From a virus (lineage: Duplodnaviria; Caudoviricetes), in IMG/VR virus record IMGVR_UViG_3300026549_000038, positions 96,193 to 160,192 of that record: a stretch of 64,000 nucleotides of DNA; one strand, written 5' to 3'. Below, one piece after another: positions 2,519-49,288 of the stretch (the stretch's first letter is position 1; each line of letters begins with the position of its first letter). The notes under the pieces are model-generated. The model worked only from the letters and a program-made list of their open reading frames with translations. It made no database searches and had not been told where the DNA came from. The position numbers and the translations under genes are program-made.

Positions 2519-2586
2519 TATAAAATCACTTTAAATATTTTGATGTTTATTTATATTTTTAATAAACATTTTAATAGATTTGTATT

Positions 2587-27140: not shown

Positions 27141-27184
27141 TATATTAATATAATGAAAGTCCAACATGTATTTATTAAATATAC

Positions 27185-27935: not shown

Positions 27936-29918
27936 ATGAAAATCCCAAAAATAGAAGAACTAGATTCCCCAAAGAAAATGGGAAGCCTATATTTGAAGAA
28001 ACACTACCCGGAATTTTACCAATACCTTTGTAACAAATATAAAGGTTATCCTATAAAAAAGACCACCGAACTTGTATACCTTTATTACAATGAATTGTCT
28101 GAACCACACAGGTGCCCGGTCTGTGACAAATACACCACATTTCTCGACTACAAAAGAGGATATCAAAAGTACTGTGGGCTCAAATGTTCTAATTCTGACC
28201 CGGAAGTCAAAGCCAAAAAAGACGCAACATCAATAAAGAAATTCGGAGTTGCTCACGCGGCTCAAAATGCGTCCATAAAAGAAAAACTCATCAAGACTTA
28301 CACTGAGAGACATGGTGGCATGGGCAACGCTAGTTCGGCCGTGCAGAAGAAACAGCAGGCCACTATGGAAGAAACTTATGGTCATAAACACGCCATGCAG
28401 AACCCAGAGATACTTAAGAAATCTCAAGACACTCTCGAGAGCCATTACGGAGTCAGAAACACTTTCAAATCGGATCAAATTAGAGAAAAAATTAAGCAGA
28501 CTAATTTAGAAAGATATGGAGTAGAATATGGTCTTATGGCAGAAGAAATTAGAGAAAAAATTAAGCAGACTAATTTAGAAAGATATGGGGCAGAATGTAA
28601 CTTGTGTTTGCCAGCAATGCGCGAGAAAATCCGAAGGACTAATATAGAAAAATACGGCTCGTCAGAACCGTTTAAAGCCAAAGACATTAAAGAAAAAATC
28701 AAACAAACCAATCTCGAAAGATACGGAGACGTTATTCCGATGAGAACCGATAACATAAAGAAAAAAGTCCAACAAACCAATCTCGAAAGATATGGAGTAG
28801 ACAACCCTTCTAAATCACAGGATGTTGTAAACAAAATAATTGAAATCAAACGAGCAGCTGCAATTGATAAAATAGAAGATTTGTTGGGATATACAGAAGA
28901 AGGGGATTGGATTCGTAAGTGTCCGCACCAGGGATGTAATAAGTGTAATGAAAAAACTTATATAATATCTCCCGAACATTATCGCACACGTAAAGCATCC
29001 AACACAGAGCCATGCACAAATATTCTTCCCGTTCAACAAGGAAGATTATCTGGTACGTCTATAGAATTGTTTGTAAGAGATGTGCTTGATAAAAACCATA
29101 TTGAATATATTACTAATGATCGTACAGTTCTAGAAGGTAAAGAACTTGATATATATATTCCAAAATATCGTCTTGCAATAGAATGTAATGGTATTTACTG
29201 GCATTCATCAGCATGGAAAGATGTTAAATATCACTTTGATAAATACATCAAGTGCGCCCAGGCTGGAATTCAACTGCTTACTATCTGGGAAGATCAAATA
29301 GTTAACAAACCAGAAATAGTAGAATCCATCATCTGTTCTAAATTGGGAATATATGATATTCATGTTGGTGCTCGATTATGTAGCGCACGTGAAATTCCAC
29401 AGAGCACAGCCAAACAATTCCTGAACAAATATCATCTTCAAGGTTCTGTAGTGTCTAAATATAATATAGGTTTATTTTACAAAGATGAACTGGTGTCTGT
29501 TATGACGTTCGGGAGAAAACGCAGGGCTCTTGGAAACAAATCTGCAAGACCTACAGAGTTTGAATTATATCGTTATTGCACAAAATCTGGTGTTCAAATT
29601 ATTGGCGGTGCCTCAAAATTATTGAAATATTTTATAGATCACTACAACCCGACTATCATCGAATCATTTTCCTCTAATGATATTTCAAACGGCTCTCTTT
29701 ATGGATCTCTTGGTTTTTCCAGGGTCAGCGAAACATATGGTTCTTATTGGTACATAGATGAAAACCTAAGAAGATATCATAGGTTTAACTTTACCAAAGG
29801 AAAACTAGTGAAAGAAGGAGCAGACCCAAACTTATCAGAATCTGAAATCATGATGAACTTAGGATATACGAGGATTTATGATAGTGGTCAGACTAAATGG
29901 ATTTTAAAATTACATTAA
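27936..29918 (+). CDS. Hef-like homing endonuclease: Zn module + repeats + PD-(D/E)XK domain + C-terminal GNAT-like domain
   Basis: ELDIYIPKYRLAIECNGIYWHS; HLQG, ELYRYC, GGASKLLKYF, LYGSLGF, IYDSG. Confidence 0.8.
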   Translation: MKIPKIEELDSPKKMGSLYLKKHYPEFYQYLCNKYKGYPIKKTTELVYLYYNELSEPHRCPVCDKYTTFLDYKRGYQKYCGLKCSNSDPEVKAKKDATSIKKFGVAHAAQNASIKEKLIKTYTERHGGMGNASSAVQKKQQATMEETYGHKHAMQNPEILKKSQDTLESHYGVRNTFKSDQIREKIKQTNLERYGVEYGLMAEEIREKIKQTNLERYGAECNLCLPAMREKIRRTNIEKYGSSEPFKAKDIKEKIKQTNLERYGDVIPMRTDNIKKKVQQTNLERYGVDNPSKSQDVVNKIIEIKRAAAIDKIEDLLGYTEEGDWIRKCPHQGCNKCNEKTYIISPEHYRTRKASNTEPCTNILPVQQGRLSGTSIELFVRDVLDKNHIEYITNDRTVLEGKELDIYIPKYRLAIECNGIYWHSSAWKDVKYHFDKYIKCAQAGIQLLTIWEDQIVNKPEIVESIICSKLGIYDIHVGARLCSAREIPQSTAKQFLNKYHLQGSVVSKYNIGLFYKDELVSVMTFGRKRRALGNKSARPTEFELYRYCTKSGVQIIGGASKLLKYFIDHYNPTIIESFSSNDISNGSLYGSLGFSRVSETYGSYWYIDENLRRYHRFNFTKGKLVKEGADPNLSESEIMMNLGYTRIYDSGQTKWILKLH

Positions 29919-29945
29919 AAAAGAGCCCTTGTGAGCTCTTTTTTT
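29917..29945. terminator. bidirectional intrinsic terminator
   Basis: AAAAAAGAGC...GCTCTTTTTTT between convergent genes. Confidence 0.8.
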
Positions 29946-29964
29946 GATCATTTAAAGAATATAC

Positions 29965-30336
29965 TTATCTCTGCAGACAAACCCACACATATCCATAAGG
30001 ATCTGTATAACTCTCGCCTGGTTCTAGGCTATCTATTTCTTCTCCTTCAGTCCACCAATCGTTTATGCCAATAGCAGAACACATATTGTCAAAGCTTCCG
30101 TCGTCTTCACCATTTCTGACATCGCTCATATCAAATTGTCCCATATCAATAGTTATAAAACTGATTGCTTCTTGTCCTGGGTGTTTTCCTGTATCAATTT
30201 TTAGATACTGGCTTCCATTTGTACGAGTGCCAATAGGCAGTCTCTTGAGAACTGATCTCTTTGTATATCCCTTTCCTTCTTCAATAGCAGCTTCATTGAC
30301 AGCCGATTTATTCAAGTAATCTTTAATATTTTCCAT
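29965..30336 (-). CDS. small protein with capsid-targeting-like leader
   Basis: Likely start ATG30336 (MENIKDYLNKSAVNE); ATTATTATT upstream. Confidence 0.7.
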   Translation of the reverse strand: MENIKDYLNKSAVNEAAIEEGKGYTKRSVLKRLPIGTRTNGSQYLKIDTGKHPGQEAISFITIDMGQFDMSDVRNGEDDGSFDNMCSAIGINDWWTEGEEIDSLEPGESYTDPYGYVWVCLQR

Positions 30337-30378
30337 AAATAAAATGATTAATTTATTAAAAAATAATAATATCAATAT

Positions 30379-30438
30379 TCAATTTTTAATCCATTCCCAG
30401 CGTATATGCCCACTGTCATATACTTTTAGGTATGGAAT
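30379..30438 (-). pseudogene. orphan 3' end of a Hef-like endonuclease gene
   Basis: Reads IPYLKVYDSGHIRWEWIKN*; compare LPYWKIYDSGHIKWYKKLL* at end of 47573..49288. Confidence 0.85.
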
Positions 30439-30439
30439 C

Positions 30440-30487
30440 CGAATTTATGATAGCGGACAAACTAAATGGCCCTTAAAGATAAGTTAA
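30440..30487 (+). pseudogene. orphan 3' end of a Hef-like endonuclease gene
   Basis: Reads RIYDSGQTKWPLKIS*; compare RIYDSGQTKWILKLH* at end of 27936..29918. Confidence 0.85.
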
Positions 30488-30498
30488 CATTTATTTCA

Positions 30499-30528
30499 CG
30501 GACTAAATGGGTATCGAAGGTTATTTAA
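30499..30528 (+). pseudogene. possible third orphan endonuclease tail
   Basis: Reads RTKWVSKVI*; GACTAAATGG identical to the 27936-gene tail, with similar stop spacing. Confidence 0.45.
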
Positions 30529-31747
30529 TAAACATATAAAGATACTCTCCATTCTTCGCAGTCGCCCCATTCGTAAGATGAATTGCGCGATTTTTCGAAA
30601 GTAAAAACTTCTGATCTGGCTTATGAATATTTTCATCTATAAGATTTTCTTGAATCACTAAAGCAAAAACTTTTGCAGGACCTGTCCAAAATACTTCAAA
30701 TAACCTATTCATAAACAGATCGAAATCTGTTCTTGATGAGAAATCTCCACAAGGATAAGATTCAAGATTAAAATAAGGAGGACACGTAAACATAACATCA
30801 TAATCTTCTTCTGGTATCCACCGAAGACAATCTTCGTTGTGAAGCTCCACATTAAAAAACTCAAAGTAATCCTTTATAGATTGCACCCCATTATATGTTG
30901 GGCGAGATAAATCATTATAAATGTATTTTTTAATCTCTGTTGATCCAATCATTCGGTGACCCCAACCACCACAAGGGTCGTACACCACCATATCATCCAT
31001 CTTGATACCTACGTTTTCTTCTATCCAAGCATACACCCATTTACAAAGCTGGGGGTTAAAACCACTATAACCATAATGTATTGCGGATTTTTTGAATCCA
31101 CTCAATATGTCATATGTATTGAGTGTTTCAGGCGTTTTGTCTAGGTATTTGAGCCTGTTGAGAAGAATCTTTTGTTTAATTTCCGGCTCTTGCCAAAGCT
31201 CTTTTTCTCTCTTATAGAAAGTATCCTGCTGGAAGAACTTGACAATTTTATTCTTATTACAGCGGAGGGTAAGTTCCCCAACTGGATGATCCAGATACCA
31301 AAAAAATTCATCATAGAGTTCTTCTCGTGTGAGATTCCAATGAAGATCCGGATCAACGTTTGGAAATGAGAGTGTTAGTGATGTTGACGTATTATTCGCC
31401 TGTCTCCACTTTTGTACAACCTTGCTGAATTGCATGGGGTGTTCGGTTCCATAATGAGATAAGGATGTTTGTTTCTTCAGAAGTTGAACTTGAGAAGATC
31501 GTTGTGCACAGGATTTAGAACAATACATATGGTAACCCTTTTTAGAATTTATAAATTTAACAGGATTACCACAGATGCAACAGGTTGGTGTTGTTGTTAT
31601 ATTGTTGTAATACCAATACAGTCTTTCTTGAAATTTCAAGTTCGGATATACGTTCAAAAGATGTTGATAGAAGTCGGGATATTTTTGTTTTACCTGATCT
31701 TCGCGGCAACTATATTTATTTAATTTATTATAATCAGGAACATCCAT
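30521..31747 (-). CDS. DNA amino-methyltransferase fused to homing-nuclease-type N-terminal Zn module
   Basis: YDPCGGWG, FTCPPY; N-terminal YPDFY...ERLYWY...CCIC...YCSKSC; paralog of 24941..25852. Confidence 0.85.
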   Translation of the reverse strand: MDVPDYNKLNKYSCREDQVKQKYPDFYQHLLNVYPNLKFQERLYWYYNNITTTPTCCICGNPVKFINSKKGYHMYCSKSCAQRSSQVQLLKKQTSLSHYGTEHPMQFSKVVQKWRQANNTSTSLTLSFPNVDPDLHWNLTREELYDEFFWYLDHPVGELTLRCNKNKIVKFFQQDTFYKREKELWQEPEIKQKILLNRLKYLDKTPETLNTYDILSGFKKSAIHYGYSGFNPQLCKWVYAWIEENVGIKMDDMVVYDPCGGWGHRMIGSTEIKKYIYNDLSRPTYNGVQSIKDYFEFFNVELHNEDCLRWIPEEDYDVMFTCPPYFNLESYPCGDFSSRTDFDLFMNRLFEVFWTGPAKVFALVIQENLIDENIHKPDQKFLLSKNRAIHLTNGATAKNGEYLYMFIK

Positions 31748-32792
31748 ATATGATTTCTTTATATTTTTGAATAACTACATCCAAGTCCGTTGAAAAAACT
31801 TCAACCCAGTTGAGCTCGTGTTCTTTAGCCCATTGTCGTTTTGTGGGGTCACGAACAGTCCAGGTCTCTATGGCGTTGTTGTAAAATTTTGTTTTCTTTT
31901 TAACCCATTCATTTAATATGATTTGATCTTGGGGTGAATCTGAATTATATGGGTGATCATTATGAACCCAGCTACCTTGTATCTCAAAATAGAGATCTTT
32001 ATCAGGAAAGTAAAAGTCACAGTTAAACGGATAAGAATCAGAACGATATTGATACTTATAATTTATATGATTATCATCTAACCATTTTTTAAACTCCTGT
32101 TCAATTTTGGATGTGTTAAATGTTCCGTTTTTCTTTTTAGTTTCATATATTTTTTTCTTATATTCGTCTGTCTGTGAATAGCTATCTACTCCATAACGTT
32201 CCCTTACAGTGTTCCGGAGTTTTTCTTTAACCCCCTTTTGAATGGATCGGACATACTCCAGACATTCTGGATTTTTCATAGGATTAGAAACACCATATTT
32301 TTTCTTACATGTTTCTTCGTATTTCTTTTTATTTACATCTGAAGCATTACCACAACCTCCATACAGTTCGATGTTTCTTAAGTTCGACTTTCTTTTAACT
32401 GATTCGTTTTGCATGGCATTGGGTACTCCGTATTTCTCTACGCAAGATTGTTGCATTCGATCCCTGACTGTTTTCGAAGCAGCTGGTGATGAACCTCCAT
32501 ATTTTTTCTTACATGTTTCTTTTGTCTTGATTTTTTTATCAGTATCAGAATTAGAACACTTTATACTACAATACGCCGTGTATCCGTATTTGGGATTGAT
32601 GTAGTTAGTAGGCTTACCACATATCTTGCATGTTGGATGTACAATTATATTGTGCAGATACCAATAAACTCTTTCTTTCCAAGGAAGCTCGTCTGGATAT
32701 TTATCCATTATAAACCTATAAAATTCAGGAAAATGTTTTTTAACACAAATCTCTCGGTTATATTTTTGCAAAGTTAGATCAGGAATTATCAT
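31734..32792 (-). CDS. homing-type endonuclease: Zn module + repeats + Vsr/DUF559-like domain
   Basis: CKIC...YCSIKC; TCKKKYG repeats; CDFYFPDKDLYFEIQGSWVH; paralog of 25842..27140. Confidence 0.8.
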   Translation of the reverse strand: MIIPDLTLQKYNREICVKKHFPEFYRFIMDKYPDELPWKERVYWYLHNIIVHPTCKICGKPTNYINPKYGYTAYCSIKCSNSDTDKKIKTKETCKKKYGGSSPAASKTVRDRMQQSCVEKYGVPNAMQNESVKRKSNLRNIELYGGCGNASDVNKKKYEETCKKKYGVSNPMKNPECLEYVRSIQKGVKEKLRNTVRERYGVDSYSQTDEYKKKIYETKKKNGTFNTSKIEQEFKKWLDDNHINYKYQYRSDSYPFNCDFYFPDKDLYFEIQGSWVHNDHPYNSDSPQDQIILNEWVKKKTKFYNNAIETWTVRDPTKRQWAKEHELNWVEVFSTDLDVVIQKYKEIIYGCS

Positions 32793-32862
32793 ATCTAATT
32801 ATATAATAAATAAAAATAATGAAAAATTTAATTCATTATTAAAATTTTCATATAAATTGAGT

Positions 32863-32897
32863 AAAAAAAGAGCCTGCACTTTTGTGCAAGCCCTTTT
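32863..32897 (-). terminator. intrinsic terminator after major capsid gene
   Basis: Minus-strand hairpin GGGCTTGCAC-AAAA-GTGCAGGCTC followed by T7. Confidence 0.8.
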
Positions 32898-32918
32898 CTT
32901 TCAATCCTTTTGGTTTGA

Positions 32919-34640
32919 TTAGATAACATCAACTCCGTCGCTGTCAACCATGAAGGTGAAGTATGACTGCTCTGGCCAGAAACCAGCGTCAACGATAGCA
33001 AATCTTGAGTTAACAAGAAGCTTCGGAGCCATAGTGCCTTCAGCGGTAATCTGAACGGTGTCAGCTAAGATATATGGCATGAAGATTACGCCCGGGTCGT
33101 TGCCCGTAGATTTTCTTCCGACACATATACGGCAGTCGTCCCAAGTCATGTAAGGGTCAACATAGAGGTTCAGACCTGCTACGGAACCAGCGAAATACAG
33201 ACTCTTGCTACCATCCTGTACAAGGGTGTTAGTCATAGGAGCGATTACAAATCCAGCTGCATCCTGAAGAGCAGACAGAATCTGAGTGTTAGTTACAACC
33301 CACTGACCTCTTCCCCAACGGCTTACGTTAGCGATAAGGTTAGCTGCTGCAAGAATACGGCTCATAACCCTTCTCTGAAGAGTGTGAGTGTTCTCAGCTG
33401 CGGTGTTCTGAGTAGCGTTCTTAACTGCGCCCCAGTTGGTAGCTGCATTAGTTCCATCGATGCCGATGAACTTCTTAGCTGCAGAGAAAGCAGACAGATT
33501 CTTGGTAGCTGCGGCACCAGCATTAGAGAAGTACAGGTTAAGGTCAACACCCTGATACTCTTTCTGGTTCTTAGCGTTGGTTACACCAAGACGGAATACT
33601 CTGTCGAGGATTCTGTTGTTGATTTCCTGAGAAATCTCGTTCTGCATAGCCTCGAGAACCTTTCCTACTACGTCAACTCCGTAAAGCGGCATATCCTGAA
33701 GCTGCTGACGAGTAACAGTACCAGTTACTTCATAAGCACCCATCTGAACGAGCTTAGTGAACATGCGTGCACCGATAGTGTTACCAACACCAGTCTCGTT
33801 CTGAGCCCTTGTCATAGGGTCATCACTTCCATTGAAGAAGTTACCGAATCCCTGAACGTGATCAGCGTTTCCTGATACGAGCTGAGGATCGCAAGCCTGA
33901 GCTGTCTGAGTACCGAGAACTGCAGATGCAGCGGTAGAAGACAAAGTTACGTTAGCGCTAAATACGTCAGCGATAGATACATCAGCGTTATCAGCAGCGT
34001 TACGAACTTTTACAACCTTAACGATCATACCGTTGTCGATACGGCTGAAACCAATGAAACTACCAGTGAATACACCAGCTGTACTAGTGAACACGATATC
34101 GTTACCTACAACGAAATCTGCTTTAGTCTTACCAGTAGCATATACAACATTGTACTTAACCTTAATATAAATAGGTTTGTTCTCTGCATCTGGACCAATA
34201 CCATCAACACCAAGAACTTCGTTTGCACGACCGGTCTTACCACCAGCATAAGGGGTATCCATGTAAGAAAGCATAGCCCAAGGGCCCTTTGAAGGGATAA
34301 CTGGAACGAGCTCAAGACCGATAGTCATAGCTGCGATTGTAAGAGCCATTGTCAGGGTTGACATTGGAATGTCACCTGAACCAACCTTATTTGTATAGAA
34401 ATCAGCTGCACCTGGGCCAGAAACCTCAGGATTCATAGGATTTCCCATACCCATAGTATTCAGAGGAGTAGCATAAATGTTCTGACTCACGTTGTTAGTA
34501 TTAGGCTGAAGGCCTTCATATACCTCGTGGTTCTTTGCATACTCACTCATCCAAGCAAGCTTACTAGCGTTCTCAACGCCGAGCTCTTCTTTGATAATCT
34601 GTGACCACTTCTGATCACCGTTTTCTGTAATGAACTTCAT
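32919..34640 (-). CDS. gp23: major capsid protein (T4 gp23-like)
   Basis: IGLELVPVIP, TRQQLQD, EISQEINNRIL, RWGRGQWVV, LYVDP, GVIFMPY, EGTMAPKLLVNSRFA; high-expression codon bias. Confidence 0.95.
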   Translation of the reverse strand: MKFITENGDQKWSQIIKEELGVENASKLAWMSEYAKNHEVYEGLQPNTNNVSQNIYATPLNTMGMGNPMNPEVSGPGAADFYTNKVGSGDIPMSTLTMALTIAAMTIGLELVPVIPSKGPWAMLSYMDTPYAGGKTGRANEVLGVDGIGPDAENKPIYIKVKYNVVYATGKTKADFVVGNDIVFTSTAGVFTGSFIGFSRIDNGMIVKVVKVRNAADNADVSIADVFSANVTLSSTAASAVLGTQTAQACDPQLVSGNADHVQGFGNFFNGSDDPMTRAQNETGVGNTIGARMFTKLVQMGAYEVTGTVTRQQLQDMPLYGVDVVGKVLEAMQNEISQEINNRILDRVFRLGVTNAKNQKEYQGVDLNLYFSNAGAAATKNLSAFSAAKKFIGIDGTNAATNWGAVKNATQNTAAENTHTLQRRVMSRILAAANLIANVSRWGRGQWVVTNTQILSALQDAAGFVIAPMTNTLVQDGSKSLYFAGSVAGLNLYVDPYMTWDDCRICVGRKSTGNDPGVIFMPYILADTVQITAEGTMAPKLLVNSRFAIVDAGFWPEQSYFTFMVDSDGVDVI

Positions 34641-34665
34641 AATTTGTAAAGTATTATTTTCGAGT

Positions 34666-34684
34666 TATTTATAAAAATAATAAT
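34666..34684 (-). promoter_or_regulatory. candidate late promoter of capsid gene
   Basis: Minus strand ATTATTATTTTTATAAATA, containing both ATTATTATT and the T4-like TATAAATA. Confidence 0.55.
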
Positions 34685-34718
34685 CAACCAGTTAGCCTAT
34701 TTGGAACTGGTTGATTAT
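34680..34718 (-). terminator. terminator of upstream structural operon, abutting the capsid promoter
   Basis: 14-bp perfect stem ATAATCAACCAGTT/AACTGGTTGATTAT, 11-nt loop, followed by TATTTTT on minus strand. Confidence 0.7.
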
Positions 34719-34762
34719 GAATAAGTTAGGACGATGTTTTTAAATGTTCCTTATTAGACACA

Positions 34763-36475
34763 TTAAATATATGTTATATTTGCATGTGACCCATCCGCTA
34801 CGAAATTACTATCATCACTAATTTCTCTCCATATCAGCCCGGCTTCTAACGTATCGCCACTGGTAGATAGTCCACGAGATCTGAAAGTTATTGTATTATT
34901 TTCCATATCGTAAGAACCAGCAGTGTCGTTTTGATCACCTATATAAACAGCAACATCTCCTGCTTGTATTCCTGTTAGGCTTATTCCAAGAGCTCCTCTT
35001 GTTACCGCATCAGATACCGCCCTGCTAATGGTGTTGTTCCAATCAGTACTACAGTTTAAAACTATATTGAACAGCATTCTCGTATCTTCCACGTCGGAAT
35101 CTGTACTATATGTCCCGCTTGATATTGATACCGCTGGTTTTTCTGTAATAGATATTTGTAAACTACCGGTTACATCTATTTCGTTTCCAAGCGTTGGTGC
35201 GGAACCGGAAACACCAGTAACAAATTTTGGTTTCATGGTAAGTGTTACGGTACCGGAGGCACTGTCAGAAAATCTTATAGTTATTTTACCGCTGGCGTTG
35301 TTTATAGTGATATTGTCTATTCCTCTTGGGGTGATTGAAGGAACGGGCACATACATTTTTATACCTTCGGAATCGTTTGGAATGTATGCCCTGGCATTAA
35401 AGTTTACTTCTTTGGTTCCTCCAGCTGGAGCCTGAAGAGGATTGCCAGAGTTTACAACAAAACTATAGTTATTTACAGTAGCACCAGCTTGCGATACACT
35501 ACAAGTTTTGTTAGTTTCTTCGGAAGCAGACATGATAAGGGTATTACCTGTTACTGGAGATGATGTTAAAGATTTTAAATATTTAACGTTTTGATATGTA
35601 GTTGCTGAATAATTTTTTGATGTTGGACTAAGGGTTATAATACCGTTGGTTGTTCCAGGTAGTATATTGGAAATTGGCAGTGCCGGGTCGGTGTCATATA
35701 GTCCACTAGTATTGTCTGTTCCTTTCGTAATTGTAGCAGTATTATCAGGGAGAGTGTTTGAATATCCAACCTGAACCGATCCACCAGCTGCAGGAAGAAC
35801 TACAGAAGTTGTTATGGATATAGCTCCAGATGCTGTTGTGGTTATTACATAACCGTGATCACTTGAAGGATCGGATATCATTAGATTTAAGGTAGTGGCG
35901 CTTTGTCCAGCATTGACCTGGAAGTAAAAATAATACACATCGTTGTCTCCCCAAGTAGAGTCAGATGGACAAATGTAAGCTGATGATCCGTCTGAGGATT
36001 CAGTACCATTTACAAATTGACTCATGTTTGTTGGCTTCTCATTACAAAATTTGCTAGATTCAGAAACAAGTGTACATGTAGTCATAGCATATCTTATTTT
36101 AGATAAATTTGATAAGCCATATACATAATACTTTCCGTTAGAAACTGTAGCTGAACTGGATATTTGATTCCTGGTTGTCGGCACAATTTTGGCAAGTCCA
36201 TTGAAATCTGCTATTGTCGGTTCACTTGATTTAACACCAACTGTTAACATTCGAAGTGAAGCTGGAGACTGATATACTGTAAATGTTTTTACCGGCGGGT
36301 GGTTCAAATCGCCGAGCTCGGTTGTTCTAGTCGAATCTGTGTATGTGGTTAATTTAAAATTTTGAGTTTTTGTAAGTCTACCAAAATTTTGACTATCAGA
36401 AACGAACTGTACTTGTGTCTCGCTCCATTCGTTTGTTCCACCAATTTCTTGTCCTGTTTTTATATTTATAGCCAT
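34763..36475 (-). CDS. Ig/BACON-like beta-rich virion protein (fibre or decoration)
   Basis: S/T/G-rich; LPAAGGSVQV, CSVSQAGA, FTVYQSPA segments typical of BACON/Ig repeats. Confidence 0.55.
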   Translation of the reverse strand: MAINIKTGQEIGGTNEWSETQVQFVSDSQNFGRLTKTQNFKLTTYTDSTRTTELGDLNHPPVKTFTVYQSPASLRMLTVGVKSSEPTIADFNGLAKIVPTTRNQISSSATVSNGKYYVYGLSNLSKIRYAMTTCTLVSESSKFCNEKPTNMSQFVNGTESSDGSSAYICPSDSTWGDNDVYYFYFQVNAGQSATTLNLMISDPSSDHGYVITTTASGAISITTSVVLPAAGGSVQVGYSNTLPDNTATITKGTDNTSGLYDTDPALPISNILPGTTNGIITLSPTSKNYSATTYQNVKYLKSLTSSPVTGNTLIMSASEETNKTCSVSQAGATVNNYSFVVNSGNPLQAPAGGTKEVNFNARAYIPNDSEGIKMYVPVPSITPRGIDNITINNASGKITIRFSDSASGTVTLTMKPKFVTGVSGSAPTLGNEIDVTGSLQISITEKPAVSISSGTYSTDSDVEDTRMLFNIVLNCSTDWNNTISRAVSDAVTRGALGISLTGIQAGDVAVYIGDQNDTAGSYDMENNTITFRSRGLSTSGDTLEAGLIWREISDDSNFVADGSHANITYI

Positions 36476-36491
36476 ATATTATATCCTTTAT

Positions 36492-38063: not shown

Positions 38064-38074
38064 ATTTTTATTTA

Positions 38075-40489: not shown

Positions 40490-40572
40490 GATTTAATAAT
40501 AATCAATCAAGACACGGATCTAAATAAAGCGGCTTATAATAATTATTATTTTTATAAGTAAATTTATAAATC

Positions 40573-42335: not shown

Positions 42336-42342
42336 TACATAT

Positions 42343-43713
42343 ATGAAATCACTATTTGATTATTTAAATAATATTCTGTTACTTGAATCTGCAACGAAAT
42401 ATGACCAGGTAACAGATTCTTATGAAGAATTATTAGAAAAATGCCCCGGCCTTGCAAAGAAGGTTGACGAAACAGGAAATAAGAAACTGCTCGGCAGTTA
42501 TCTCAAACAAGTTGTGTCTCAAACAGATTATAGTGGTGATAAAATATTTATTTATTCTGCAGATGGGGACCGATTTAAGATTCCATATGCTTTTCAACCA
42601 GCTCTGTTATCAGTAGCCTCCGATCCAAAATACGCCGATGTTATTTCTGCAGAAATTAAATCAGACGGAAAAGTACATATAGCTGTTTCCAACGGCAGAA
42701 AAATGATAGGCGTTGGACAAACCGGTTCTGGGTCAGTCGGCAGGGTCTCTACAACTAATCAGGAAAAGGCCACGTGCGTTGTATGGAACGCTTATGTGAA
42801 GAATCTTCGTGAAAATGACAATTTTGATGTTAATAATCCAATTATGATAAAGGGACTTGTTGGGGATATCTCTGCAGATTTTGATAAAAAATGGATAGAA
42901 TCATTCCAAAAACAAATATTTTCTATAACTCGTTATATGGAATCTGTCAATATGGATCCAAAGAATTACAACATGACAAGATACGATGACGGCCCTGTTG
43001 GAAAAGCATATGCTAAGTTTATTCAAAATTATACGAAAACCATTGGCGGTCAAAAAGATAATTTTGATCCAGCTGATGTAATCATTTACGATGTAAACGA
43101 TGAAAACTCTATCATCAGTTCATTGAACTCTTTCGCTGCTAGTGTAAAGGAGAATCCTGAAGGTACAAAAACAGAGTTTACAAAAATATTATTCAATACT
43201 CAGTTGCTCCAGGGAATTAGCCTTAAAAAGATTGAAAAAGGTACAGGAACATATGATAAGTTCAACATTGATGGTGCTGGAAATCGAGTAGAAAAAATCA
43301 CCAATTTTACTGAAATTACTTCTAGGAATGACGAAGTGAACAGTGGACAAGTAAAGGTTCTATGTTCCGGTTCTTTTAATCTCGATAATTTAACTGATGG
43401 TGAAGGAGAAGAACTCGGCCCTGAAAAGCAAGTAGTTATATGTATGAGGAGTTTTGGTGCACAGCATGGTATTGACGTACAGCTGAAGAGCATCAAATCT
43501 GGAACTAGTCCAAGTCTTGGTAAGTGTCCTGTTAGGGTATGGAAAGAAATCATTGGCAGCAATGAAAGCAATGATTTAAAAGCAGACGTTAAACTTTTTA
43601 GAAAAATGATTTCAGGAAAACAGCGCGCGTCTATTATCAGAAACTTAGAGGACATTGTTAAAGCTGCAGTTAAAGAGGGTCCAGCATGCTTTCCATTTAT
43701 ATTAATACATTAA
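42343..43713 (+). CDS. putative PD-(D/E)XK-like nuclease-fold protein with capsid-targeting-like leader
   Basis: Likely start ATG42343 (MKSLFDYLNNILLLE); QEKAT...DPADVII...GISLKK pattern. Confidence 0.5.
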   Translation: MKSLFDYLNNILLLESATKYDQVTDSYEELLEKCPGLAKKVDETGNKKLLGSYLKQVVSQTDYSGDKIFIYSADGDRFKIPYAFQPALLSVASDPKYADVISAEIKSDGKVHIAVSNGRKMIGVGQTGSGSVGRVSTTNQEKATCVVWNAYVKNLRENDNFDVNNPIMIKGLVGDISADFDKKWIESFQKQIFSITRYMESVNMDPKNYNMTRYDDGPVGKAYAKFIQNYTKTIGGQKDNFDPADVIIYDVNDENSIISSLNSFAASVKENPEGTKTEFTKILFNTQLLQGISLKKIEKGTGTYDKFNIDGAGNRVEKITNFTEITSRNDEVNSGQVKVLCSGSFNLDNLTDGEGEELGPEKQVVICMRSFGAQHGIDVQLKSIKSGTSPSLGKCPVRVWKEIIGSNESNDLKADVKLFRKMISGKQRASIIRNLEDIVKAAVKEGPACFPFILIH

Positions 43714-43737
43714 AAAAACAGAAAAAACAAGTTCGAT

Positions 43738-44994
43738 ATGAAAAATTTAAACGAACATATTATACAACAGAAGAACGAAGTAGCAGACACTAACGAAGTA
43801 GTTGGCCTGCTGCTCGGTCTTTCATGCCTTGCTTTTGCATCCAAAGGCAGCCAAGCTATGACAAACCTCACTGCCCCATTCGCTAATTTGTTTGGTGGGT
43901 TGTTCGGAAGGTTTAAGAAAGAAACTCCAGAAGAGGAGAAGAAAAGACTTGAAGCTGAGATTAAAAAAGAGAAAGATAAACTTGAGGTTGAAAAACTCCG
44001 CAAAGAACTCGAAAAACTCCGCAACGGAGAAGATGTCGATGATGACGATGATAAGAAGAAAGATAAGAAACTCAGTGAAGAGGAAATGTTTGATTCTAAA
44101 TTGATTGCCCTCAAGATAGCAAAAGATGCAAATGAGGATGAGCAAGATCCTGAAAAGAAAAAGAGGATCGACGACATGATCAAAATGCAAGAGAATGCTA
44201 TGTTTGATGATAACGGCAATCCGAGGAAGTGTGCTGACATCGAAAAGGAGATGCGCAAGATGCTTCCGAAAGATGCAGACCTTGGTGAGTTCGAAAAGAA
44301 ACAAAACGAGCTTCTTAAGAAACTCGAAGAACCGGAATTGCAGTCACAACTCAAAAAACAAATCAAAAATATATCTAACGACGATCTTCGTGAGATTAAG
44401 AGTAATGCTAGAATCGGTGCTGCAGAAACCAAAAAGGAAATCGCTGAAGCCTCAAAGAAAGGTGAGATTCCTGATTTTATGAAAGGTGCATGTGCGGAGA
44501 TGGGTCTTCCGGAGCCAACGCAAGAAAATGTACCTATGTTGAATCCTCCAAAGGAAGAACCAGAAAAGAAGGAAGAACCAGAAAAGAAGGAAGAACCAGA
44601 AAAGAAGGAAGAACCAGAAAAGAAGGAAGAACCAGAAAAGAAGGAAGAACCAGAAAAGAAGGAAGAACCGACAGCAGATGAAATCGAACAGATGCAGAAA
44701 GATTACGCTGATGCTGAACCTGGATCTGATAAAGCAAAAGAACTAGAAGGAAAATTGAAAGCCGCAAATGCCGATGTACCTAAGACAGAAACTGATAAAG
44801 AGGGGAGACCTAAACAAAAACGTACAGGCCCACGCGGAGGAAAATATTTTAGAACAAAAGTTGACGGAAAATGGGGAGAATGGCAATCAGATACAAATGA
44901 AAATCTAAAATGGTATTTGGCTGATAAGCTGAGTCAGACAGCAGAATCAAAAACATCAAAGCTAACAGAATACATCAACAAAGTACTCGGTTAA
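43738..44994 (+). CDS. highly charged putative head-internal protein with KEEPEK repeats
   Basis: MKNLNEHI leader, hydrophobic segment, K/E/D-rich body, TGPRGGKYF motif; upstream of protease. Confidence 0.65.
   Translation: MKNLNEHIIQQKNEVADTNEVVGLLLGLSCLAFASKGSQAMTNLTAPFANLFGGLFGRFKKETPEEEKKRLEAEIKKEKDKLEVEKLRKELEKLRNGEDVDDDDDKKKDKKLSEEEMFDSKLIALKIAKDANEDEQDPEKKKRIDDMIKMQENAMFDDNGNPRKCADIEKEMRKMLPKDADLGEFEKKQNELLKKLEEPELQSQLKKQIKNISNDDLREIKSNARIGAAETKKEIAEASKKGEIPDFMKGACAEMGLPEPTQENVPMLNPPKEEPEKKEEPEKKEEPEKKEEPEKKEEPEKKEEPEKKEEPTADEIEQMQKDYADAEPGSDKAKELEGKLKAANADVPKTETDKEGRPKQKRTGPRGGKYFRTKVDGKWGEWQSDTNENLKWYLADKLSQTAESKTSKLTEYINKVLG
44551..44669. repeat. perfect 18-bp tandem repeat x6.6 (KEEPEK)
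   Basis: AAGGAAGAACCAGAAAAG repeated from 44551. Confidence 0.95.
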
Positions 44995-45009
44995 ACCTTT
45001 GAATTTTTA

Positions 45010-45021
45010 ATTATTATTATT
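45010..45021 (+). promoter_or_regulatory. candidate late promoter of protease gene
   Basis: ATTATTATTATT 25 nt upstream of ATG45047. Confidence 0.5.
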
Positions 45022-45046
45022 AAAAATAAATATAGATATTGAAATT

Positions 45047-46489
45047 ATGTCAAATAAAACATTTATATTTGAAACACTGAATGATGTTAAAGGAATGTCT
45101 GCAAAGAAAGACGGTGAGTTTATGACTCTTAGTGGTGTCTTTGGAGTTTGCGGAGTTCGAAACAATAACAATCGTGTTTATGAAACATCTAACTATTCAA
45201 AGATGGTTTCAGAAATGAAAAAACGAATCAAAGAAGAAGGTGGTATCCCTGGAGAACTTGAACATCCTCAGATGATGAACATTACTCTCGAAAATATCAG
45301 CCATAAAATTACTGATATCAACATAGACGAGAACGGCGTGGTTAGTGGTAGCATTACTTTGCTGAATACTCCAAAAGGAAAGATAGCTCAAGCTATTGTC
45401 GAAGGCGGACTTCCTCTTTATATTAGTTCTAGGGCAACTGGATGTGTCGATCAGAAGACTGGTGCCGTTACACTTGAGAGGCTTGCTACTTATGACCTCG
45501 TAGGATCTCCGGGATTCTCTCAGGCAAAGCTTCATCTAAACGAAAATCAGATAGCTGAATCAATCAATGAAAATATTTATTATATCACCGAAAAAGAAAC
45601 AAAAGAAAATAATACAGAACAAGATATGGATACAAAAGAAATTCTCGAAAGGCTCGAATCTCTTGAGAATACAGTTAAAGACCTGCAGCAGGAGAACGAA
45701 AAACTTAGAGAGAGCGCGAAAGATAACATTCAAACAATCGCAGAAGGAGTTCAAAGCTGGATCGTTGAAGAGTACAGCCCAATGATTCAAAAGTGGATCG
45801 TTGAAGAATACGAACCAGAGGCAAAGAGCAAAATCCTCGAAAGTGTTGATACTGAATCTATTATGAACAACGTTAAGACTATGATCTCTGAAAAGGTTGC
45901 TCCTGCAATCCAGGATTGGATCGTTGAAGAGTATAGCCCAATGATTCAGGGTTATTTAACTGAAGAATATAGTCCTGTTGTAGAAAAGTGGATCGTTGAA
46001 GAAATTGCTCCTGGTATTCAAAATTGGATTACTGAAGAGTTCAGTCCGGTTCTCGATGAGTATATGACAGAAAACATCAAAACTCAGGCTGCAAGTATTG
46101 TAACCGAAGCTATTAACGAAAGCAAGAAAAATAGTTTAAGTTCAATAGAAGATACATTGAAGCTTCTTGAGGGCATGGAAGTCACAAAACCCACATATCA
46201 ATCTAAGACCATTGTTACTGAATCAGCTAATGAGCCTATGTTCATTGCACAGATGCCTGCTGAACTCAGACCAAAGTGGGATATGGCTTCAAAAGATGTT
46301 AAAGAAAGCATCACTCGCAGAGCAAAACTTTACAATTTCAATAACGAAGGAGCAACTCAAAGATTCTGGGAAAGTATTAACTTTGATGAAATTAAACCAA
46401 CGAGTGCCGTTTATGAGGGGCTAGATCAGATCGAAGATCAAAGAGAGAGAATGATCCGTGAAAGTCTCCGTAAGTGGATGAAGAAGTAA
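45047..46489 (+). CDS. gp21: prohead protease (T4 gp21-like) fused to scaffold-like region
   Basis: RNNNNRVY, GELEHP, ISHKI, TPKGKI, ISSRATG, YDLVGSPG; C-terminal WIVEEYSP repeats. Confidence 0.92.
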   Translation: MSNKTFIFETLNDVKGMSAKKDGEFMTLSGVFGVCGVRNNNNRVYETSNYSKMVSEMKKRIKEEGGIPGELEHPQMMNITLENISHKITDINIDENGVVSGSITLLNTPKGKIAQAIVEGGLPLYISSRATGCVDQKTGAVTLERLATYDLVGSPGFSQAKLHLNENQIAESINENIYYITEKETKENNTEQDMDTKEILERLESLENTVKDLQQENEKLRESAKDNIQTIAEGVQSWIVEEYSPMIQKWIVEEYEPEAKSKILESVDTESIMNNVKTMISEKVAPAIQDWIVEEYSPMIQGYLTEEYSPVVEKWIVEEIAPGIQNWITEEFSPVLDEYMTENIKTQAASIVTEAINESKKNSLSSIEDTLKLLEGMEVTKPTYQSKTIVTESANEPMFIAQMPAELRPKWDMASKDVKESITRRAKLYNFNNEGATQRFWESINFDEIKPTSAVYEGLDQIEDQRERMIRESLRKWMKK

Positions 46490-46519
46490 AGAAATAAAAA
46501 AGTATTTAACGGATATAAT

Positions 46520-46548
46520 AAAAAAGGACCCACATGGGTCCTTTTTTT
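46520..46548. terminator. bidirectional intrinsic terminator
   Basis: AAAAAAGGACCC-ACAT-GGGTCCTTTTTTT. Confidence 0.85.
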
Positions 46549-47185
46549 AATCATCATCATAAATATCAAAATCTTCTACTTTGATATTGTGTGATTTTAT
46601 ATATTTATAAAAATATTCTTCTGTGATCTTTGTCGAAGCAAGATTTATATAATCATATTCAGAATTTTTTTCTAATCCTTCTAAATTATAAATTGGACAG
46701 TCAAATACGTAAAGCTTTCCAGGAGTTTTAAATTTCGGAAGTCCTTTTAAAGATTGTAAATTTTTACAATCATTTATATTAAGCTCTGCGTATATTTCCG
46801 CAGCTGGGTCGAAAATATCTTCCAGAGTAGTCAATCCAGGACTTCTTATTATATAAACGTCTGATGCGTGAGAAGAACCAGGATATTCAATATCAATTAT
46901 ATTTAGCGGGTTGTTAAGTCTACTTTTTATGTTTTCTATAGATAAAAGATAATATTTGTTATCTAATATTATTTTTATTTTACCTTCTGGAGTTACTTCA
47001 ACTTGCTTCGATATTGTTTTGGGGTTTAACGGAGAGTGACTTTTTCGGAAGGAATAGGGTATAAGATCATATCCATATTTTTTTAATTCTTCTAGGGCGA
47101 TTTCCCGTTTAGCTGTAGATATCATATCTTCTTCAGATTTTCCAGAGAAGAGACTTTCCGTTATATATTGATTTATATTTATCAT
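46547..47185 (-). CDS. LRR-like protein with capsid-targeting-like leader
   Basis: MININQYITESLFS; LTTLEDIF, CKNLQSLKGLP, IYNLEGL. Confidence 0.75.
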   Translation of the reverse strand: MININQYITESLFSGKSEEDMISTAKREIALEELKKYGYDLIPYSFRKSHSPLNPKTISKQVEVTPEGKIKIILDNKYYLLSIENIKSRLNNPLNIIDIEYPGSSHASDVYIIRSPGLTTLEDIFDPAAEIYAELNINDCKNLQSLKGLPKFKTPGKLYVFDCPIYNLEGLEKNSEYDYINLASTKITEEYFYKYIKSHNIKVEDFDIYDDD

Positions 47186-47199
47186 AACAATCTTGTCAA

Positions 47200-47550
47200 T
47201 TACAGTTCTTTTAATACATCGTCTATCTTCACGTTAGAATTAAACTCGAAGTCTGTTTCTTTTAACCACTTTTCGAAATGTTGTCCGATATTATAAACAA
47301 TTTTCGAAGGTATATTATTTTTCTTATATAATTCCAATAGGTAAAATACTATCATTTCCGCGTGGCAGCTGACTCCGGCTGCAATTGTGTATAAGTATAT
47401 TATATCAAAAAAGTCTTTGAAATCTGAATTTTCCTTATTCCACTTTCTGGTTATGAATTGTTTTAGTTTCGGAGTACATATGCTATTCCAAACCCTATCC
47501 ACGTCTTTTTGTGATATGCTTTCGTTTATATAATCAATCAGATGTCTCAT
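47200..47550 (-). CDS. small protein with capsid-targeting-like leader
   Basis: MRHLIDYINES leader. Confidence 0.7.
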   Translation of the reverse strand: MRHLIDYINESISQKDVDRVWNSICTPKLKQFITRKWNKENSDFKDFFDIIYLYTIAAGVSCHAEMIVFYLLELYKKNNIPSKIVYNIGQHFEKWLKETDFEFNSNVKIDDVLKEL

Positions 47551-47572
47551 ACAAATATATATTGTTTTGATA

Positions 47573-49288
47573 TTATAATAATTTTTTATACCACTTAATG
47601 TGACCGCTATCGTATATTTTCCAGTAAGGTAAAGAAGCCATAATCTGGGATTCCGTATTGTGTTCTATATCATACCCCATTTGTTCAAGCTTTCTTTTGG
47701 TGAATGATGTTCTATGATATCTGTGCAAGTCGTTTTTATTTATATACCAATATGCTCCTGTTATTTTTCCATCGCTCGAGAATCCCAAACTTTTATAAAG
47801 TCCACCATTGCTAATATCATTAGATGAAAACGATGTGATAGATTTTGGGTTATATACATTAATAAAATAACTCATAAGTTTCCCAGCTGCTCCTACCACT
47901 TGAGTATTCAATTTTGTACAAAATCTGGTCAATTCCCAATCAGTCTTGCTGTTTCCGGTATTTCCGGAAAGTTGTGATCGTTTATTAAAAGTCATAATAC
48001 CCACACATTCTTTATCCTTAAATATACCTAAACTAACCTTAGCTGGACATGTTCCTTGTATGTGGTTGCTGTTTAAAAATTCCGTTTTTGTTTTTGAATC
48101 CACTTCGAGAATCTCACAATTCCTGGCGTATATTCTATTTTTATATATTCCTAATTTAGAAAGTAATATTGACTTAATAATCTCAGAGTGTATCTTCACC
48201 TGATCTTCCCAGATAGTTAACAATTGAATATTTTTATCTCGGCATTGTTTAAATTTGTTAATATGATAACTACTGTTTTTTAACTCAGTGGAATGCCAAT
48301 AACACCCATTACATTCTATCGCAAGTTTGTGACTTGGTATGTATATGTCAATTTCTCCTGCGATGATGTCTCTTACATTACAGCGATAATTTATATCATA
48401 TTCATCTAATATATCTCTTATAAAAATTTCTATACTTGATATGTTTGGAGAAACTGGAAGTAATTTTGTACAAGTTTCAATACCGTTATAAATCCTGTGG
48501 AAATATACTTCAGAATTAATATTATATTGTTTGTTGGTGCATTTATCACAGCTTGGATTTGAACATTTTATGGTATATATTGTATTTCCATCAAGCATTT
48601 GAATATCAATGACATTTGGATATTTGTTGGTAATTTTATTTTTTATAGAATTTATATAATTATCAAATATTTTAGGATTAGGATGCGCACTCCCATATCT
48701 TTCGAGATTTGTCCGTTGAATTTTTTGTTGTATCTGCTCCGAGGCACCGGCCCAGTTAACTCCATATCTTTCGAGATTTGTCTGTTGAACCTTTTTCTTT
48801 ATGTTGTCAGTCCTCATTGGAATAATGTCTCCATATCTTTCAAGATTGGTTTGCGCTGTTTTTTCCGCTAACTCTTTTGATGCAAACCCTATACCCCCGT
48901 ATTTTTTTAAATGAGTATCTTTAACTTTTTTATTAACCCCCGGGATCTGAGATATATTAGAAACTTCATATTTTGTTTTAACTGTGGATAATGTTCTTTT
49001 TATTCTCTCAGGTGAAGACTCAGAGCATTCCCGACTGCAAAATTTTTTATAACCCTTATTAAAATTTACATATTTGGTTGGTTTACCACACATCTCACAA
49101 ACCGGTGCATGATTTATTTGATTAAAATACCAGTATAATTTTTCAGAAATAGTTGTTAAAAAATTATATTTATTGTTTATAAATTCATAAAAGTCTGGGT
49201 AATTTAATCTAATAAATTTATCTTGACATGCGTGCTTTGAATTTTCGGATATAAATGCTTTTGTTGGTTGGCTTATTTTGTGAGTCAT
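47573..49288 (-). CDS. Hef-like homing endonuclease with C-terminal GNAT-like domain
   Basis: CEMC...FCSREC; TNLERYG repeats; EIDIYIPSHKLAIECNGCYWHS; HIQG, ELTRFC, GAAGKL, LYKSLGF, IYDSG. Confidence 0.8.
   Translation of the reverse strand: MTHKISQPTKAFISENSKHACQDKFIRLNYPDFYEFINNKYNFLTTISEKLYWYFNQINHAPVCEMCGKPTKYVNFNKGYKKFCSRECSESSPERIKRTLSTVKTKYEVSNISQIPGVNKKVKDTHLKKYGGIGFASKELAEKTAQTNLERYGDIIPMRTDNIKKKVQQTNLERYGVNWAGASEQIQQKIQRTNLERYGSAHPNPKIFDNYINSIKNKITNKYPNVIDIQMLDGNTIYTIKCSNPSCDKCTNKQYNINSEVYFHRIYNGIETCTKLLPVSPNISSIEIFIRDILDEYDINYRCNVRDIIAGEIDIYIPSHKLAIECNGCYWHSTELKNSSYHINKFKQCRDKNIQLLTIWEDQVKIHSEIIKSILLSKLGIYKNRIYARNCEILEVDSKTKTEFLNSNHIQGTCPAKVSLGIFKDKECVGIMTFNKRSQLSGNTGNSKTDWELTRFCTKLNTQVVGAAGKLMSYFINVYNPKSITSFSSNDISNGGLYKSLGFSSDGKITGAYWYINKNDLHRYHRTSFTKRKLEQMGYDIEHNTESQIMASLPYWKIYDSGHIKWYKKLL

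Follow-up and report, generated by a model that had tools for sequence, protein, structure and literature searches.

A Mom-like GNAT domain fused to Hef-type homing endonucleases, and a separate cassette of nuclease and putative methyltransferase, in a T4-like phage contig

Several nucleases of one family are encoded close together in the terminal part of a phage contig, and some of them carry a long C-terminal tail that others lack; the question raised by this locus is what the tail is, and whether it could shield the phage from the nuclease to which it is attached. The stretch analyzed here (64,000 nucleotides (nt), referred to as the window) is the final 64 kb of the 160,192-bp IMG/VR phage contig IMGVR_UViG_3300026549_000038, which has a completeness estimate of 81%. 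Its tail sheath gene (49387-51705), major head protein gene (32919-34640) and prohead protease gene (45047-46489) identify the region as T4-like myovirus, and a megablast search of isolate phages with 20 kb of the window gave no match, pointing to a phage without a close cultured relative. The tailed proteins of the window are P0001, from the open reading frame (ORF) at 27936-29918 on the plus strand (660 amino acids (aa)), and P0002, from the ORF at 47573-49288 on the minus strand (571 aa). They are very probably homing endonucleases of the Hef/EDxHD type that carry a true homologue of Mom, the DNA-modification protein of phage Mu. Their parts are as follows, with E values from Pfam and from hidden Markov models (HMMs).

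27936-29030 (+): N-terminal part of P0001, with a Zn-ribbon, about eight DUF7487 repeats (..TNLERYG..) and a second Cys/His knuckle; Pfam DUF7487 E 2e-45; invariant Cys pairs
29031-29348 (+): nuclease domain of P0001, subtype A (Vsr-like, EDxHD/Hef type); 3r3p profile match; Pfam Vsr 5.6e-5, under threshold
29349-29918 (+): predicted Mom-like GNAT domain of P0001, aa 472-660 plus stop codon; identified by AF2, Foldseek, VIA-align, hhalign and Pfam Mom (25.4 bits)
48452-49288 (-): N-terminal part of P0002, with the Zn module, fewer DUF7487 repeats and a second Zn knuckle; Pfam DUF7487 6e-17, zf-FCS_1
48146-48451 (-): nuclease domain of P0002, subtype A; nucA HMM 1e-41; included in the alignment that matches 3r3p
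47573-48145 (-): predicted Mom-like GNAT domain of P0002, aa 382-571 plus stop codon; Pfam Mom E 2e-5 (aa 392-544), Mom-domain HMM 6e-78

A combination of tblastn and a whole-contig search located five paralogues of the family in the genome, three long and two short. The third long copy, also Mom-fused, lies outside the window (G000:C1, approximately 32053-33888; L001:4054-5889, minus strand; 612 aa), where it adjoins a gene matching single-strand DNA-binding protein (PHROG 224). The short copies are P0005 (25842-27167) and P0006 (31734-32792), both on the minus strand. An alignment of the five shows that all share a Zn-ribbon, DUF7487 repeats in variable number and a nuclease core in which D, E and H are invariant, while a second Zn knuckle and a tail of 189-190 aa, starting after the nuclease domain, are present in the long paralogues only and the tail is missing from both 25842-27167 and 31734-32792. 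The tail motifs H(L/I)QG, EL.R(Y/F)C, G(G/A)A.K(L/M), SFSSNDIS, LY..LGF and IYDSG occur in all three long copies. A first-pass annotation, made from the letters alone, had stated that two nucleases with a common Zn module and repeats add about 190 aa, and that the two nucleases coupled to a methyltransferase do without this addition; the alignment bears out both statements, and all of the motifs listed there were found in both proteins as well as in the third paralogue.

The answer to what the tail is comes exclusively from profile-profile and structure comparisons; comparisons with single sequences gave no guidance, with a BLASTP E value of 1.3 for the tail against Mu Mom, nothing relevant from phmmer against PDB sequences, and an hhalign probability of 0.7% against the single Mom sequence. 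The AlphaFold2 (AF2) model of the tail, computed from an alignment of 64 relatives, has a predicted local distance difference test (pLDDT) score of 94.9, and in a Foldseek search of the PDB with this model the top-ranked entry is 8bv8, the crystal structure of phage Mu Mom (E 8e-9, TMq 0.68). The matches that follow are nearly all GNAT acetyltransferases (234 at E <= 1e-3, Z 13-14.7). In VIA-align, the tail superimposes on Mom over 168 residues with Z 14.7, compared with about 130 residues for ordinary GNATs at similar Z; the tail thus includes the Mom-specific helical insertion between the last strands, the feature that distinguishes Mom from ordinary GNATs (PMC13219725). Alignment of the tail family profile with a profile of 38 Mom homologues gave a probability of 92.5% (E 4.8e-7, 139 columns), the tail matches PHROG 1384 ('Mom-like DNA modification protein') at 2.3e-9, and 27 of the 64 close relatives have a Pfam Mom match at E <= 0.01, the best reaching 2.4e-9. 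On its sequence profile and predicted structure, the tail is a GNAT fold, alpha/beta with splayed beta4 and beta5, and specifically a Mom-like one. The first-pass annotation had considered it GNAT-like and related to Mom, and the structure prediction that it proposed as a check upholds this view.

Selection on the Mom-like domain is clearly strong, as judged from the identity between paralogues, which is similar for the Mom-like domain (44-56%) and the nuclease (51-57%) and higher for both than for the N-terminal part (33-36%). The tail also matches 15,867 cluster representatives at E <= 1e-3 in a set of 1.8 billion proteins, a number that makes chance similarity a far-off explanation, and the best of these matches are almost all C-terminal in proteins of 450-700 aa.

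The nuclease to which the tail is joined belongs to the EDxHD group. A profile built from the nuclease domains of the three long paralogues matches I-Bth0305I (PDB 3r3p) with E 6e-10, aligning P0001 D405, E416, N418 and H423 with I-Bth0305I D196, E, N208 and H213, and D405, E416 and H423 (P0001 numbering) are invariant across the five paralogues; the fifth position of I-Bth0305I, D222, aligns with His in the window proteins. A search of NCBIfam gave just sub-threshold Vsr matches. I-Bth0305I is the prototype of the Vsr-like EDxHD homing endonucleases, and Taylor et al. (2011, PMC3239194) assigned Hef-type phage endonucleases to its family. It shares with the window proteins the homologous Vsr-like catalytic domain and a modular DNA-binding region at the N-terminus, but it is intron-encoded and 266 aa long, carries NUMOD/HTH repeats rather than the Zn and DUF7487 elements, lacks a GNAT domain, and has a different last EDxHD residue, which aligns with His here (3r3p, PMC3239194). 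The N-terminal Zn/repeat part of P0001 is presumed to be a DNA-binding chassis. Within it, P0001 (28704-28799, +) and P0002 (48758-48853, -) share a near-identical stretch of about 32 aa over two DUF7487 repeats (QTNLERYGD.IPMRTDNIKKKVQQTNLERYGV); as the flanking repeats are much more diverged, the sequences suggest that repeat units have been exchanged between the two paralogues.

Several lines of evidence place the tailed proteins among known mobile genes. PHROG 3339 ('homing endonuclease') covers them end to end (E 2e-140 and 7e-116), and members of PHROG 559 are located inside group I introns of terminase genes. Used alone as a tblastn query, the Mom-like tail finds 398 isolate phage records, whose hosts and groups include Vibrio, Campylobacter, Acinetobacter, Klebsiella, Salmonella, Dickeya and Lak phages, and which are annotated as 'Hef-like homing endonuclease' or '(putative) nuclease/acetyltransferase'. 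Presence and absence beside conserved virion genes, the criterion for mobility, was observed at the site after the sheath gene, where a gene is present in the window, inverted in locus L169, and missing in L170 and L004, which have an empty site. The sheath homologue of L170 (6001-8787) is 928 aa long, compared with 772 aa in the window, with an insertion of approximately 150 aa. Six-frame translation also revealed orphan Mom-type 3' ends lying tail to tail at 30379-30487, between ORF 29965-30375 and a methyltransferase gene: one on the plus strand (30431-30487, ..RIYDSGQTKW.. up to a stop) and one on the minus strand (30379-30444, ..KVYDSGHIRW.. up to a stop), which resemble the last 19-20 residues of Mom-type endonucleases. 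In sequence these look like the remnants of two lost Mom-type endonuclease genes, and would mark a spot repeatedly used for insertion. Given the PHROG matches, the isolate annotations, the polymorphic sheath site and the orphan ends, the genes at 27936-29918 and 47573-49288 and the third copy fit the description of free-standing homing endonuclease genes.

The same family includes Hef of phage U5 and the Hef-like genes of Dickeya phage LIMEstone1 (F-LimIII, VII, VIII and X), Campylobacter phages CP220 and CP30A, and Acinetobacter, Proteus and Klebsiella phages, as established through PHROG 3339/559 and tblastn. These genes stand free between conserved virion or replication genes, as do the window copies; F-LimVIII neighbors the genes for tail tube and sheath, and the P0002 gene immediately follows that for the sheath. 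Homing has been demonstrated for U5 Hef only (cited in PMC2988022). The Mom-like tail that is present in the window copies is undiscussed in the papers on U5 Hef and Hef-like genes, but the fusion of nuclease and Mom is an already published and very common gene type, described for jumbo phages together with the idea of cutting and protecting (Iyer, Anantharaman, Krishnan, Burroughs & Aravind 2021, Viruses 13:63, PMC7824862). Those Mom-restriction-endonuclease fusions resemble the present ones in combining a Mom-family GNAT with a DNase of the restriction endonuclease fold, and in the proposed logic, in which Mom shields the phage DNA and the nuclease attacks other DNA. They are a prediction from comparative genomics in jumbo phages, whereas here the contig is about 160 kb at 81% completeness, and so not from a jumbo phage, and SFSSND stands in place of SFADER.

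To consider whether the domain could act as Mom does, the residue register was taken from hhalign, columns were counted over 103 distinct relatives, and Mom was numbered in its 241-aa form. Mom H58 corresponds to P0001 H500 and Mom Y159 to P0001 Y589, both kept in 100% of the relatives; Mom R111 corresponds to R546 (99%) and Mom S124 to S560 (82%, with S in two of the three copies of this genome). The P-loop reads x-x-x-G-G-A-S, with G86 at 98%, G87 at 85%, A88 at 89%, and N, S or Q at the first position (Mom has N-S-E); in P0002 its sequence is GAAGKL. By comparison, the GNAT P-loop that follows beta4 and serves the pyrophosphate of coenzyme A (CoA) has the pattern Q/R-x-x-G-x-G/A, against the N, S or Q with which the loop of the tail starts. 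This conserved pocket of H, R, Y and a glycine-rich loop argues for a bound cofactor and catalysis. In Mom itself, R111, S124 and R151 are essential and D149 is important (PMC7261163, PMC13219725); of the catalytic set H58, R111, S124, D149, R151 and Y159, the window copies retain H, R111 and Y and have D149 and R151 replaced, leaving the set incomplete. The wider Hef-like family keeps D149 in 82 of the 103 relatives and has R at the R151 position in 39 of them.

The explanation of the tailed proteins that we on balance prefer, and hold to be somewhat probable as a whole, is a Hef-type endonuclease with a Mom-family domain that acts on DNA near the target, so that one polypeptide would both cut and protect. 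The N-terminal Zn-ribbon and variable DUF7487 array would presumably read a long DNA target; the Vsr-like EDxHD nuclease would cut that target in genomes without the gene; and the C-terminal Mom-family GNAT may act on DNA at the site that the nuclease itself targets or close to it, the most likely action being to place an acyl or aminoacyl-derived group onto adenine. The resident phage genome would then be spared and unmodified co-infecting genomes would be cut. The domain identities, the selection on the Mom-like domain, its wide spread, the presence and absence next to conserved virion genes and the linkage statistics given below are established by this analysis. That these particular copies have kept a DNA-modifying Mom-like domain is rather doubtful, because S and D occupy the essential D149 and R151 positions.

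A number of observations weigh against the preferred explanation. The SFSSND of the three copies and their close subclade (consensus SFSSNDIS) takes the place of Mom SFADER, with D149 replaced by S and R151 by D; Mom Y59 is L or I in the three copies, and in P0002 the essential S124 is replaced by G. In Mom, R151A abolishes activity and the D149 mutant is strongly impaired (PMC7261163, PMC13219725). The Pfam Mom model (PF25680) scores the three copies at 25.4, 24.7 and 22.5 bits, below its gathering threshold of 27.1. Homing endonucleases of the same family also work free of any modifier: I-Bth0305I has none, and neither do 3 of the 52 subtype-A and 62 of the 71 subtype-B nucleases, so protection is no general need. 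Campylobacter and ViI-like phages, which are rich in such genes, reportedly have modified G or T in their bulk nucleosides, and not modified A.

Comparison with phage Mu Mom itself (8bv8; Karambelkar 2020, PMC7261163; Silva 2026, PMC13219725) shows both likenesses and differences. The window domains share with it the GNAT core and the Mom-specific helical insertion and keep counterparts of H58, E108, R111, S124, Y159 and H183; they differ in their sub-threshold Pfam scores, in lacking D149, R151 and Y59, and in having GGAS where the Mom P-loop has NSES. Mom is moreover a stand-alone dimer of 231/241 aa that transfers glycine from Gly-tRNA(Gly) to adenine N6 genome-wide, its co-substrate being Gly-tRNA(Gly) and not acetyl-CoA or acyl-CoA (PMC13219725). 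Catalysis by the three copies of this genome is thus uncertain, as two residues required by Mom are replaced (D149 by S and R151 by D), and the loss of these counterparts argues against Mom's own chemistry in these sequences. The first-pass proposal of an acyl-type modification in cis is therefore retained in part: a Mom-like GNAT is indeed present in cis, but the donor of Mom is Gly-tRNA(Gly) and the copies are without the counterparts of D149 and R151.

These substitutions bring into play an alternative that is less likely but has to be taken seriously, namely that the Mom-like domain is non-catalytic and is kept as a DNA-binding, base-flipping or dimerization module that helps the nuclease, which would then cut without modifying. 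Besides S and D at the D149 and R151 positions in all three copies and the whole close subclade, and the changes of Y59 to L or I and of S124 to G in P0002, it draws on the Mom fold itself, which brings dimerization and DNA binding (Mom is a tight dimer with a helix-turn-helix (HTH)-like DNA-binding insertion, and also binds tRNA; PMC13219725), and on the need of EDxHD nucleases to dimerize for a double-strand break (PMC3239194). It sits poorly with a P-loop and counterparts of H58, R111 and Y159 that are near invariant in more than 100 diverged relatives, as would be expected for a bound nucleotide-type cofactor, and with the strict conservation of SFSSND, which indicates a pocket under selection and in which the Asp two positions along could replace D149. 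A further reading, which is very improbable, has the domain acting on a substrate other than DNA, for example by acylating tRNA or protein in the manner of TacT-type GNAT toxins, with the endonuclease as no more than its carrier. GNATs that work on tRNA exist, and Mom binds tRNA (PMC13219725). Against this reading stand the permanent linkage of the domain, across thousands of clusters, to a DNase and a DNA-targeting chassis, the fact that its closest relative is a modifier of double-stranded DNA, and the 99% conservation of R111, the residue believed to touch the adenine once it is flipped out.

The two short paralogues raise the same question in a different form, since each is followed by a methyltransferase gene. 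The four features concerned are the following.

25842-27167 (-): P0005, with Zn module, DUF7487 repeats and a nuclease of subtype B, with a PD-(D/E)xK core (..CDFYFP..LYLEIQGSWVH) and no Mom domain
24941-25852 (-): P0003, with a helical N-domain and a putative class I S-adenosylmethionine (SAM) amino-methyltransferase (DPCGGWGHR, IYND, FTCPPY); shares 11 nt with the end of P0005
31734-32792 (-): P0006, the other subtype-B nuclease, whose gene comes immediately downstream of that for the major head protein (32919-34640)
30521-31747 (-): P0004, the second putative methyltransferase, with 60% identity to P0003; shares 14 nt with P0006

P0005 weakly matches a phage exonuclease (3k93) over the D..E motif. 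P0003 and P0004 have no Pfam or NCBIfam match, and are classed as putative methyltransferases (24941-25852 and 30521-31747) with support from their motifs and from the AF2 model of P0003 (pLDDT 92.8), for which Foldseek finds METTL5, METTL16, HsdM, Trm11 and RsmD at E of about 1e-6. The family to which they belong has at least 221 proteins, with no family name in NCBIfam or PHROGs and no Pfam model. The motifs DPCGGWGHR, IYND and FTCPPY are invariant in the family alignment; among 61 distinct members, motif I is DPCGGWG in 52 and motif IV is CPPY in 52, the canonical SPPY being present in 5. A tblastn search of isolate phages with the methyltransferase gave one weak partial match, so metagenomic contigs are the basis of the survey of this family.

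Many relatives have the subtype-B nuclease joined to the methyltransferase in one polypeptide of 546-712 aa, and the layout in the window, with the methyltransferase as a separate protein, is the split form of this fused enzyme. The first-pass description of methylation in trans fits the window, where the partner ORFs have a methyltransferase fold with SAM and (C/S)PPY motifs, and does not extend to the relatives in which a single chain holds both parts. A frameshift or sequencing error as the origin of the split was considered and rejected, as two diverged copies in the window and loci L004, L009 and L016 have the same overlap layout, and P0004 begins with a Zn module of its own. This N-terminus (the first ~120 aa) holds a copy of the Zn module and one repeat of the endonuclease family, and a relative in L012 (4951-6762, 603 aa) joins the N-terminal chassis to the methyltransferase with no recognized nuclease domain; together they point to a DNA-binding chassis common to cutter and modifier. 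Complex prediction for the P0005 nuclease domain with P0003 supports binding: the ipSAE score is 0.77, compared with 0.00 for the best of three controls, with runs agreeing in at least 68% of contacts and partner pLDDT of at least 82. In the calibration, 58 of the 80 solved complexes and 2 of the 110 mismatched pairs attained this mark; it is approximate here because our own alignments were used.

The methyltransferase is not confined to this nuclease. It is also fused or adjacent to an approximately 250-aa protein with an HNH motif (..DHI.P...N.QPLW..N..K), to Pfam HNH, and once to LAGLIDADG. The HNH-motif protein is fused to it in L021 (4840-6414) and L028 and is the upstream ORF in L023, L027 (5049-5816), L031, L036-L041, L045 and L046; Pfam HNH is joined to it in L042:5155-6468 and LAGLIDADG in L035:4894-6843. 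Single-ORF fusions number 15 with subtype B, 7 with HNH and 1 with LAGLIDADG, and a recognized nuclease accompanies 48 of the 53 full-length methyltransferases, as fusion partner or as neighbor; about 2-4 of the 53 are 'empty'. The cassettes lie mostly directly downstream of a gp23-type major capsid gene.

The existence of fusions, the great rarity of methyltransferase copies without a nuclease and the interface predicted for the pair lead us to favor a real partnership of methyltransferase and type-B nuclease, with Type IIG-like logic in a homing context; weighing on this is the fact that most type-B nucleases manage without the methyltransferase. The analogy is with Type IIG/IIC enzymes (MmeI, BcgI-like), which likewise combine a PD-(D/E)xK nuclease and an (N/D/S)PPY-type amino-methyltransferase in one chain or in two coupled genes. 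There is no detectable sequence relationship between the two, and the type-B cassette differs in that its target would be read by the N-terminal Zn/repeat array, in its motif IV (CPPY), in its location in phage virion gene clusters, like homing endonucleases, and in the many nuclease relatives that have no methyltransferase.

The first-pass annotation had gone further, proposing that each of the four nucleases has exactly one modifier and that the two kinds are interchangeable on one nuclease family. Two surveys bear on this, both of them samples; IMG/VR has 309 type-B and more than 582 Mom-type loci in all. The modifier-centered survey covered 80 methyltransferase-centered and 80 Mom-centered IMG/VR loci and six ENA loci, with ORFs scored by domain HMMs; the nuclease-centered survey covered 52 distinct subtype-A and 71 distinct subtype-B nucleases, with a modifier sought within 300 bp. 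A rule of one modifier per nuclease, which the former had suggested, was rejected after the latter, since sampling via the modifier is blind to modifier-less nucleases. Subtype A is Mom-fused in 43 of 52 cases, with Mom as the next ORF in 3, none in 3 and 3 cut by the end of the locus. Subtype B is without a modifier within 300 bp in 62 of 71 cases, with an adjacent methyltransferase in 5 and a fused one in 2. Mom and methyltransferase on one nuclease, as an ORF or an adjacent pair, were found in none of about 300 related loci. Exclusivity across genomes, which the first pass had wished to see checked, is thus preserved in that no nuclease has both, and fails as a rule in that 62 of 71 type-B nucleases have neither; likewise, the claim of exactly one modifier is true of this genome and not of the wider sample. 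The idea of interchangeable modifiers is not supported, as Mom pairs with nuclease subtype A and the methyltransferase with subtype B, the N-terminal Zn/DUF7487 chassis being all that they have in common. The subtype-B nuclease with its methyltransferase gene is a cassette parallel to, and separate from, the Mom-fused endonucleases. Mom-type and methyltransferase-type genes are often side by side (in the window, L009, L019 and L047), as expected at insertion hot spots. In L047, a 729-aa ORF (2361-4550) that immediately precedes a fusion of type-B nuclease and methyltransferase scores with both the subtype-A and the subtype-B nuclease HMMs and with the Mom-like domain; either a protein with two nucleases or two elements that fused recently may account for this.

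Two other readings of these pairings were weighed against a partnership of separate cassettes. That every nuclease needs exactly one interchangeable modifier, a methyltransferase in trans or a GNAT in cis, is distinctly improbable: all five nucleases of this genome fit it (three with Mom and two with methyltransferase), no nuclease with both was found in the ~300 loci, 48 of 53 methyltransferases are nuclease-linked and the type-B pair is predicted to bind (0.77 versus 0.00), but the 62 of 71 type-B nucleases without a modifier within 300 bp contradict it as a general rule, the two modifiers sit on different nuclease subtypes, and the methyltransferase also pairs with HNH and LAGLIDADG. It is also unlikely, if less so, that the methyltransferase is an ordinary phage gene after the major capsid gene, a favored landing site beside which homing endonucleases of several classes have inserted, sometimes in frame. 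Three unrelated nuclease folds beside the same methyltransferase, mostly just after the gp23-like gene, would be explained in this way; there is precedent for one phage gene being targeted by endonucleases of different classes (PMC2988022), and most type-B nucleases are elsewhere, without a methyltransferase. A mere landing site would not, however, account for the scarcity of 'empty' methyltransferase genes (~2-4 of 53), for the many single-ORF fusions (15, 7 and 1 as above), for two diverged two-part cassettes at two sites of the window, or for a binding prediction that passes its controls (0.77 versus 0.00). Read with the Mom-fused endonucleases, the separate cassettes suggest a broader picture that we put forward only tentatively and regard as on the unlikely side: homing endonucleases of T4-like and jumbo phages may commonly carry their own DNA modifier as built-in self-immunity, by two independent solutions. 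One would be a Mom-type GNAT fused to EDxHD nucleases, and the other the unnamed CPPY methyltransferase, fused to or next to Vsr-like type-B, HNH and LAGLIDADG nucleases, giving mobile restriction-modification-like cassettes of one or two genes, mostly just downstream of the major capsid gene.

The Mom fusion itself adds little to what is known, as it is published, abundant and labeled 'nuclease/acetyltransferase' in GenBank. If the Mom-like domain does mark DNA site-specifically, the fusions would amount to 'cut or protect' enzymes that can be programmed, and would offer selfish nucleases a new way to keep from killing the genome that carries them, and if built-in self-immunity is true, homing nucleases could target sequences that the resident genome cannot afford to change. 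The CPPY methyltransferase family is a modest new lead: it is seldom seen apart from homing nucleases, among which three folds are represented, and a complex with its own nuclease is predicted, which makes it a testable candidate mobile restriction-modification-like cassette in phages that may prove more useful than the Mom-like domain from which this analysis set out.

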